From the UHGV virus genome UHGV-0026213: a DNA stretch of 64,000 nucleotides; one strand, 5' to 3'. The notes beneath the pieces were generated by a model. That model had not been told where the DNA came from. It searched no databases and worked only from the letters and a program-made list of their open reading frames with translations. The position numbers were made by a program, and so were the translations under genes. Source of the DNA: a virus. Of the stretch, positions 50,545 to 52,076 are shown one piece after another (within the stretch, counting starts at the first letter, position 1; every line of letters starts with the position of its first letter).

Positions 50545-52076
50545 AACAGTATTTAGCGTTAATGCAAGACATTCTGGATAACGGTGTTGTCAAGAAAGAC
50601 CGCACAGGTGTAGGGACACTATCTGTATTTGGTCGTCAACTACGTTTTGACCTGAAAGAAGGTTTCCCATTAGTTACTACGAAGAAGGTTCACCTGAAAA
50701 GTATCATTCATGAACTGTTGTGGTTCTTAAACGGTGACACTAACGTGAAGTACCTGCAAGAGAACGGGGTAAAAATTTGGGATTCATGGAGGCGGCCATA
50801 CGTAGGTTTTACTGGTAAAGTCATTCGCATTCCACGATTGAAAAAAGAATACGTCCCTTTTAATGGAACTTTTCCTTTGGCCATTCCTAGTTTCGATTCA
50901 ATAGAAGATAAAAAATTGGCATACGCCTGGAAACGAATGATGCATCGCTGTTATGATAAAACAGCACATAACTACCGACATTATGGTGCAAAGGGTGTAA
51001 GCGTTGCTTTACGTTGGCACGACGTAACTAATTTTGTTAACGATGTTAAAAAACTGCAAAATTGGTTTTATAAAAGTAAGAACTGGAATGACTTCGAACT
51101 CGATAAAGATTATTACGGCTCCAATCAATATTGCCCCGACGGATGTGTATGGCTCAGTAGAGGAGAAAACGTCCATCATGCGTGGGTACGCATTATTAAA
51201 GGTGACGGAACACAATACATTTGCCGAACGTATAAACATGCATCCCAATTAACTGGTTTAAGCAAAACATCCATCCACAGATTCGTTAAGGAAGGCATTA
51301 CCCCACATCTTAAAGGAAATAACAGAATCAAAGGTGTAAAAAATTGGATTATGCAAAAAGCTACTACTGAAGACTACCTCTATCGCAACGAAATTAACGA
51401 CGACGGAGATTTAGGCCCAGTCTACGGTAAACAATGGCGAGATTGGGTAGGTCCAGACGGTCGCCACCACGACCAGATCAGCAAAGTTATCCAACAACTT
51501 CGTGAAGACCCTGACTCCCGCCGTATTATCGTTAGCGCCTGGAATGTAGGTGACCTGGACGATATGGCACTTAATCCATGCCACAACTATTTCCAATTCT
51601 ACACAACAGAAATGACGTTGCTTGAACGACTGGATTGGTACGAAGCAAATGAACCGGAAAAATTTGCGAACGCGCCACTTATTAATCACGAAGATATTGA
51701 TGATGAAGAACGACTTCATGAAACTTTAGATCGTGAAGGTATCCCTCGTCGTAAGCTTTCATGTTTTTACATGATGCGGAGCAACGATTACCTACTCGGC
51801 GCGCCATTTAACGTCGCTTCGTACGCGTTGTTAACTCACATGATTGCACAGCAGTTGAACATGGTTCCAGACGAGTTGGTTTATAGTGGTGTAGATGTTC
51901 ATCTTTACTCTAACCATCTGGAGCAGGCAAAACTACAACTTACTCGCGAACCTTACCCGCTACCTAAACTGGTTATCAAACGTAAACCTGATTCCATCTT
52001 CGATTACAAATACGAAGACTTCGAATTAGTTGGTTATCAATCGCACGACACAATTAAAGCTCCCATAGCTGTCTAA
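50541..52076 (+). CDS. thyA: Thymidylate synthase with two in-frame insertions (511 aa)
   Basis: N-terminus [31 protein letters not shown], and [70 protein letters not shown] all align with ThyA; catalytic Cys retained. About 205 extra aa after IWDSW and about 46 extra aa after QFYTT. Confidence 0.85.
   Translation: [511 protein letters not shown]

Follow-up and report, generated by a model that had tools for sequence, protein, structure and literature searches.

We analysed a stretch of 64,000 nucleotides from the virus genome UHGV-0026213 (hereafter the window, which always means this whole stretch; coordinates are positions in it) and report that its thymidylate synthase gene, thyA, encodes a ThyA enzyme interrupted in frame by a module that resembles the homing endonuclease I-HmuI. 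The gene lies at 50541..52076 on the plus strand, as do all of its parts described below, and specifies a chimeric protein of 511 amino acids (aa). Among the other products of the window are large virion structural proteins, a tail fibre, a UvsX-like recombinase, an SbcC-like nuclease subunit and RNase H; the source is a jumbo phage equipped for recombination of its own.

The open reading frame (ORF), taken from a program-made ORF list, matches the thymidylate synthase profile PF00303 over positions 1-266 of 266 (Pfam, E = 2.8e-105), and its scores exceed the cutoffs of the NCBIfam thymidylate synthase (ThyA) equivalogs. It aligns with Escherichia coli ThyA (Ec; 1aob/1qqq) in three collinear pieces, in which aa 1-84 correspond to Ec 1-84, aa 286-356 to Ec 85-155 and aa 404-511 to Ec 157-264; an otherwise canonical ThyA thus carries two insertions, one of about 201 aa after W83 and one of 47 aa at the turn of Ec D156. 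The N-terminal segment (aa 1-83, 50541..50789) aligns with Ec 1-83, ends in IWDSW, which contains the equivalents of Ec W80 and W83, and is about 96% identical in nucleotides to two insert-free relatives (L006 and L007, introduced below) up to about position 50772. A first-pass annotation, made by a model from the sequence alone, had described an end-to-end ThyA with its catalytic cysteine and an in-frame insert of about 205 aa after IWDSW. The alignment agrees on all of these points, save that the insert is closer to 201 aa, and the catalytic cysteine is indeed present (C347, equivalent to Ec C146, codon 51579..51581). The annotation was mistaken in supposing that a four-residue loop had been replaced: the 'NDD' that precedes GDLGPVYG corresponds to Ec 'DEN', so the insertion is clean and no ThyA residues are replaced by the module. 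Its term 'essential enzyme' also went too far, ThyA being conserved but not necessarily essential to the phage.

The catalytic and substrate-binding apparatus of the enzyme is untouched. Equivalents of Ec R21, E58, W80, W83, Y94, R126, R127, C146, R166, D169, N177, H207 and Y209 are all present in the window protein, and the same 13 residues are kept in every complete module-bearing allele that we found. The identical 511-aa protein is encoded on several independent contigs of ~220-226 kb from different sources. Because the exact protein recurs in this way, the chimera is no artefact of assembly, nor the frameshift fusion of two genes that the first-pass annotation had named as its own possible refutation, and the observation of an in-frame module within a complete ThyA is confirmed.

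The module itself occupies aa 84-285 (50790..51395). It falls within PHROG families annotated 'HNH endonuclease' (2081, 374 and 3377), with the best match to phrog_2081 (E = 4.5e-29), which substantiates the earlier association of the insert with small phage proteins of the HNH family. Neither in the window nor in ten free-standing relatives does any Pfam or NCBIfam model match the module core. A profile built from 16 module sequences matches a single solved structure, the homing endonuclease I-HmuI (1u3e residues 112-170, E = 0.025), and the C-terminal NUMOD/helix-turn-helix (HTH) domain aligns with that of I-HmuI with an hhalign probability of 94.8%. When the whole module was compared with an I-HmuI family profile of eight members built from phage homologs, the match rose to 97.0% (hhalign, alignment A6; E = 1.2e-10, 159 columns), spanning module positions 23-209 and I-HmuI positions 5-182. 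On these profile comparisons the module is almost certainly a full-length homolog of the I-HmuI family.

Four parts can be distinguished along its length. An N-terminal linker (RRPYVGF..., 50790..50915), delimited in the module alignment, opens with the junction motif W-R-x-P-Y/W seen in most carriers. It is followed by the family signature LA..W..MM.RCY...AHNY..YG.KG..V...W..V.NF (50916..51035), which is common to the free-standing ORFs and in which M50, R53, Y55, Y65, V72 and W76 are invariant in alignment A6. Next comes a putative beta-beta-alpha-Me (HNH-derived) core, FELDKDY...C (51093..51179), supported by the A6 invariants L104, D105, K106, D107, C119 and N127, by hhalign and by a gapless register. 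The last part is a predicted NUMOD-like, helix-turn-helix DNA-binding domain (51180..51359), for which the 1u3e profile match, the hhalign result and the occurrence of PF22083 in intron-borne homologs provide the basis. The three motifs quoted in the first-pass annotation are all found in the sequence, and its NUMOD-like HTH proves to be the I-HmuI-type C-terminal domain. Within the putative core, C.WL..EN aligns with NLEW.T.EN of I-HmuI with high column confidence as the second strand and helix of the beta-beta-alpha-Me motif, and a gapless register places LD[K/R] on the VDH75 of I-HmuI (P = 2.5e-4) with an identical spacing of 15 residues to the conserved W. The metal ligands of I-HmuI are D74 and N96. 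The corresponding putative metal-ligand positions of the module, D188 and N210, are invariant, the register of N210 being confident and that of D188 resting on the above P value plus the identical spacing.

As the first-pass annotation had proposed, the insert is neither an intein nor a group I intron. The first residue of the module is R in most carriers and C, T, F, K or S elsewhere, its end is never His-Asn, the +1 residue is Gly, and there is no match to a Hint or intein Pfam model. No RF00028 match was obtained at E ≤ 10 between positions 50000 and 52600 of the window (Rfam), and no group I intron was found at the module in any of the 13 thyA hosts scanned (the window, L001-L003 and L010-L018). 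The negative result at the module is meaningful, since genuine group I introns were picked up by the same Rfam searches in two thyA genes (L010, 58.5 bits; L016, 81 bits) and in thyX of Vibrio phage pVa5 (99 bits). An endonuclease gene hidden in another frame, of the kind known from the ShiLan domain discussed below, was likewise rejected: the alternative-frame ORFs in 50790-51404 have no homologs, and the endonuclease-like protein is in the host frame. In that frame the module is under strong purifying selection (window vs L010, pN 0.105, pS 0.756). The ORF list shows no internal start or stop of the module, and nothing resembling an internal promoter or terminator rises above background; lacking its own start, stop and ribosome-binding site, the module must be made only within the ThyA polypeptide. 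At the level of sequence we therefore hold with high confidence that the insert is in frame and unspliced. Two further leads came to nothing, namely a supposed 'td intron with HNH' of phage pVa5, which is actually a thyX gene with a genuine group I intron and a canonical HNH endonuclease, and an actinophage intein preprint, which is about ThyX.

The same site is occupied in other phages. The best tblastn matches of the insert among GenBank phages lie in the thyA genes of Tenacibaculum phages PTm1 and PTm5, Enterococcus phages vB_EfaM_A2 (A2 below) and 163, and Bacillus phage Kioshi; those of PTm1, A2 and Kioshi, the three genes fetched, are each annotated as a single long coding sequence, of 491-548 aa. 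Protein and IMG/VR searches added the carriers P0002, P0004, P0046 and P0036 and nine viral contigs (L010-L018). In all 18 thyA genes (the window and at least 17 further ones, whose inserts are homologous) the module directly follows IW..W, and the junction motifs W-R-x-P-Y ... Y-R-x-x-I/L are conserved among the carriers. These come from phages of Enterobacteria, Enterococcus, Bacillus and Tenacibaculum and from metagenomes, and their ThyA backbones are 26-83% identical, with some pairs at only 26-33%. In the Kioshi gene (L003 1826-3472) what seems to be the native right flank, FRNGSLGRSYAYQFES, precedes the module, and a donor-like second copy, DDGYLYRYQLSR, follows it, as if the target region had been duplicated; the Kioshi module also bears an extra N-terminal, beta-rich extension of ~100 aa. 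The phage collection contained no close relative of Kioshi for a comparison of empty and filled alleles.

Beyond thyA, the wider family comprises 731 records in the phage collection, which are small free-standing ORFs or ORFs between split exons. They share the pattern W..M..RC..AHNY..YG.RGI.V...W ... LDR(I)D..G.Y.P.NC.W.T..EQ..N and are annotated 'HNH endonuclease' without a curated Pfam or NCBIfam model. The closest relatives outside thyA sit between the split exons of the DNA polymerase gene of Staphylococcus phage Stau2 and of the ribonucleotide reductase (RNR) small-subunit gene of Lactococcus phage AM1. No relative of the module was found among 100,044 representative genomes of bacteria and archaea. 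The phrog_2081 family is known from nine group I introns in DNA polymerase genes of Bastillevirinae (PMC11878797).

Within individual phage lineages the module is rare. In the lineage of the window, 114 of the best 120 protein clusters lack it, their alleles being 344-346 aa long, so that the insert-free alleles for which the first-pass annotation had suggested a search do exist among related phages; those that we aligned are 92-95% identical to the window protein in the shared parts. Among Enterococcus Schiekvirus, two of 30 records are filled and 28 empty. The nearest DNA relatives of the window are ~222-kb circular 'plasmid' records of E. coli and Enterobacter ludwigii, the L006 (NZ_CP173450.1) and L007 (NZ_CP134650.1) already mentioned. 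These 'plasmids' are collinear with the window and non-mobilizable, and most genes in the stretch fetched are annotated as hypothetical; most likely they are jumbo-phage genomes deposited as plasmids.

Comparison with these empty alleles delimits a recombinant patch at 50773..51465, made up of the DSW codons, the module and a donor-type thyA flank of ~70 nt. On either side, up to ~50772 and again from ~51466, the nucleotides of the window and of L006/L007 agree at ~96%, and in between a patch of 693 nt substitutes for ~190 nt of the empty allele, removing a 33-aa insert of the recipient. A sliding-window mosaic analysis agrees: identity of the window to the empty L006 is 84-98% outside aa 79-311 (except for the diverged last ~20 codons) and to the module-bearing L010 only 42-80%, whereas inside the patch, right flank included, it is 64-84% identical to L010 and 50-76% to L006. 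Between the window and L010 the module is 81% identical and the exons 65%. A similar picture emerges from the filled Enterococcus phage A2 and the empty PEF1, which are nearly identical until ~50 nt before the junction, where A2 has first DSW for DEW and then the module; on the right the flank is replaced, a 38-aa lineage insert is lost, and divergence decays over ~190 nt to 100% identity. The lineage inserts of the empty alleles lie ~20 codons downstream of the module site (L006 4626-5660, aa ~103-140, 33 aa, CKVVECHD...LVYEK; PEF1, L050 301-1263, 38 aa) and were presumably swept out of the filled alleles by the conversion tract. A conserved target, a sporadic distribution and co-conversion tracts that are longer on the 3' side are homing signatures, and they are present in two independent lineages. 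Horizontal transfer of the module by recombination is, on these alignments, very likely.

The position after W83 lies in a part of ThyA described in the structural literature on thymidylate synthases as its variable 'small domain'. The enzyme of Lactobacillus casei has an insert of ~50 aa near the W83-equivalent position. Such a location, which also hosts the lineage inserts of 33 and 38 aa, fits an enzyme that can tolerate a large insert.

The locus has further features. The second insert (aa 357-403, 51609..51749), placed by the three-piece ThyA alignment, is an acidic segment of 47 aa (...REGIPRR) in the hairpin at Ec 155-157, where it replaces the turn of Ec D156. It has no Pfam or PHROG match, is present in the insert-free P0024, P0033 and P0110 as well as in PTm1, and is absent from E. 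coli and P0036. The first-pass annotation had noted it as a second insert of ~46 aa after QFYTT; it is there, but it is a lineage feature of this ThyA subfamily, unrelated to the mobile module. At the other end of the gene, unusually strong divergence from the empty L006 and L007 sets in over the final ~40 nt of thyA. Directly after it follows an extra ORF of 98 aa, orf98 (52084..52380), which ends in an HTH-like C-terminus (...LAEIHGVTPSRISQIISKAKRDFQ), is absent from the ~96%-identical L006 and L007 and has no PHROG match. Right after its own thyA, L010 carries a 58% homolog of orf98 (4656-4943), and the C-terminus of the L010 ThyA is more similar to that of the window. The 3' end of thyA and orf98 (region 52041-52410) look like a second recombination patch, from an L010-like donor.

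Group I introns are found downstream of the module in the thyA genes of L010 (3969-4299) and L016 (4325-4566; Rfam), and these two genes have been invaded twice, by two different kinds of element. The L010 intron is ORF-less, ~330 nt long and lies between the R166 and S167 codons (...LYQR/SADMFLG..., the slash marking the junction). In the window protein's own 90% cluster, six of the 11 members (P0122, P0125-P0128 and P0130, with P0131 listed alongside) are 419 aa long and end in ...FYMMR/KHNCAF before the stop codon, which mirrors the read-through of L010 at its intron junction, ...LYQR/KLSCAF and stop. Some module-bearing alleles of this phage therefore very probably carry the intron as well, and the sequences imply that module-plus-intron alleles circulate in the same phage population.

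We consider it probable, at roughly 60%, that the module is a homing-type mobile element that persists as an unspliced, in-frame domain of ThyA, and the data suggest selfish DNA that, instead of residing in an intron or intein, is kept as an additional protein domain which the enzyme tolerates. An I-HmuI-family gene would have become an in-frame domain after W83 that left the catalytic residues untouched, and the chimera, probably dimeric like other ThyA enzymes, would carry two I-HmuI-like modules. In a mixed infection it might recognise, in an empty thyA allele, the conserved DNA coding for IWDEW and DLGPVYG and introduce a nick or a cut; the longer 3' conversion tract suggests that this would happen downstream of the insertion point. 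With the filled allele as template, the recombination functions of the phage could then mend the break, whereby the module and adjacent codons would be copied; the filled allele would itself be immune, its recognition sequence being split by the insertion. That transfer is driven by the nuclease activity of the module itself is a slightly better than even proposition. A more ambitious version, to which we give somewhat less than even odds, is that this constitutes a fourth lifestyle of homing endonuclease genes (HEGs) beside the intron-borne, intein-borne and free-standing ones: a permanent surface domain of a functional dimeric ThyA, the chimera being a homing enzyme with a His-less (Lys) HNH site that may also mobilise the ORF-less intron ~390 nt downstream by collaborative homing.

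Several observations weigh against the module being a homing element of this kind. The general-base position, His75 in I-HmuI, is occupied by Lys189, and Lys is invariant there (LDKDY) among thyA and intron-type forms; free-standing relatives have Arg there (LDRID), and no member examined has His. The 'degenerate HNH' of the first-pass annotation is apt in this respect, but the substitution characterises the whole family rather than this copy. Because the general-base His is replaced throughout the Lys/Arg subfamily, nuclease activity is not assured; the 'HNH' label rests on homology and catalysis cannot be assumed. Still, the restriction enzyme PacI is an active HNH-type nuclease that lacks the canonical His, and the module family has a conserved His in its AHNY motif, so that activity may be possible after all. 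The register of the first beta-strand is modestly supported (the P value of 2.5e-4 given above), and two single-sequence AlphaFold models (pLDDT 33) were too poor to show a fold or an active site. Identities of module and host correlate overall (Spearman 0.73), which means that much of the module's history is vertical and that transfers were mostly among related phages or are old. The second donor-like patch at the 3' end and orf98 indicates that general recombination also shapes the thyA locus. Much of this would equally suit a nuclease-dead relic or a domesticated DNA-binding domain, neutral or useful (for tethering to DNA or the replisome, or for regulation), its patchiness being due to ordinary recombination and occasional loss: all members of the family are without the catalytic His, module and host broadly co-diverge, the second patch looks nuclease-independent, and purifying selection is equally expected for a useful domain. 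We nonetheless regard this as unlikely, if well worth keeping in mind. The same His-less core is the sole candidate catalytic domain of the phrog_2081 relatives in introns and between the split exons of DNA polymerase and RNR genes, which are expected to need a nuclease for their placement; D188 and N210, the putative metal-ligand positions, show no variation; in two lineages the patches close tightly around the module and divergence falls off with distance; and the rarity of the module in both lineages is unexpected for a beneficial domain. Where the first-pass annotation had left the choice between a domesticated and an active mobile domain, the sporadic distribution and the co-converted flanks thus favour 'mobile' over 'domesticated', with the above reservation about 'active'.

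Mobility could also be borrowed, the module being inactive and another phage endonuclease cutting thyA nearby and mobilising it by co-conversion. Such trans-homing has reportedly been seen for mobE and I-TevIII in T4, and thyA does have other mobile features, in the form of the ORF-less group I intron of related alleles and the orf98 indel. In the window, however, thyA is not flanked by a further module copy or by any recognisable HEG (orf98, as noted, being without a PHROG match), in Enterococcus phage A2 the module lies at the centre of the patch and the annotation shows no additional gene beside thyA, and a helper would be needed separately in eighteen different genomes, all of which makes this explanation improbable. 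We think still less of cryptic removal of the insert, whether by an unrecognised ribozyme, a non-canonical intein-like or autoproteolytic reaction, or ribosomal bypassing. The absence of splicing is read from sequence, which tells against our interpretation, and the conserved junction motifs might be taken as a hint of such a process; yet Rfam has no match at the module despite positive controls in the same genes, intein junction residues and a Hint or intein Pfam match are missing, and a conserved protein under purifying selection accounts for the whole insert. As for an artefact, in which a frameshift or chimeric assembly would have joined two genes, we found nothing in its favour, and the recurrence of the identical protein on independent contigs, together with the homologous architecture in the isolated and sequenced phages PTm1, PTm5, A2, 163 and Kioshi, reduces its probability almost to nil.

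To our knowledge, HEGs inside essential or conserved genes have been thought to survive only by hiding in a self-splicing intron or intein. If homing by an in-frame ThyA domain is the correct interpretation, a recurrent unspliced module in an intact enzyme would make structural tolerance a third route of survival, and would provide a natural route by which nuclease or DNA-binding domains become fused into enzymes (compare Cas9, whose RuvC domain contains an HNH domain). The case also points to the position after W83 as a permissive insertion site in ThyA. The existence in culture of filled (A2) and empty (EFDG1, PEF1) Enterococcus phages makes the case experimentally tractable, and whether the Lys/Arg-for-His HNH variant, widespread in phages as its 731 records attest, is an active nuclease warrants further investigation.

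We found no description of the ThyA module in the searchable literature, where the closest conceptual precedent is the ShiLan domain of mycobacteriophage DNA methylases. This is a stop-free, in-frame insertion, neither intein nor intron, sporadically distributed and inferred to be retained in the protein and spread by homing (PMC11855218, PMC9957025). Its HNH endonuclease is encoded in a different reading frame and translated separately, the in-frame product being a featureless hairpin (PMC11855218). In the thyA module, by contrast, the endonuclease-like protein is itself the in-frame product, and the host gene and the endonuclease lineage also differ.

The nearest comparisons by descent are with I-HmuI and the phrog_2081-type ORFs. 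I-HmuI (PDB 1U3E), which comes from a DNA-polymerase intron of Bacillus phage SPO1, shares with the module the order of an N-terminal region, a beta-beta-alpha-Me segment and a NUMOD-like HTH. The module differs in having Lys at the His75 position, in its distinct N-terminal signature (W..M..RCY..AHNY..YG), in lacking ~20 residues of linker helices, and in being fused inside ThyA where I-HmuI is intron-encoded. The phrog_2081-type ORFs (Stau2 ORF84, AM1 gp147 and those of Bastillevirinae) have the same signature, including LDKD and EN, are ~232-238 aa long and contain PF22083 NUMOD-like domains; they are, however, separate genes with their own start and stop, located between split exons or in self-splicing introns of other genes. 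Their identity to the window module is ~29-31%, compared with 32-42% for the thyA-embedded copies of isolated phages.

HNH-containing inteins are similar in that an in-frame endonuclease module occupies a conserved site of a conserved enzyme and spreads horizontally. The thyA module has neither a Hint domain nor the junctions of an intein (C, S or T at the start; HN at the end followed by C, S or T) and, being without a splicing domain, must remain in the mature protein. The same host gene is also home to the td/thyA group I introns, which carry the GIY-YIG enzymes I-TevI (T4) or I-BmoI (B. mojavensis) and, like the module, exploit a highly conserved, active-site-proximal target with co-conversion of the flanking exon. 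Those introns lie in the Q-R-S-x-D region, whereas the module lies at W83, has no ribozyme and is HNH-derived; introns of the classical type coexist with it in the thyA genes of L010 and L016. Set beside these systems, the thyA module is best regarded as a homing-endonuclease element that has solved the problem of residence in a conserved gene in another way.

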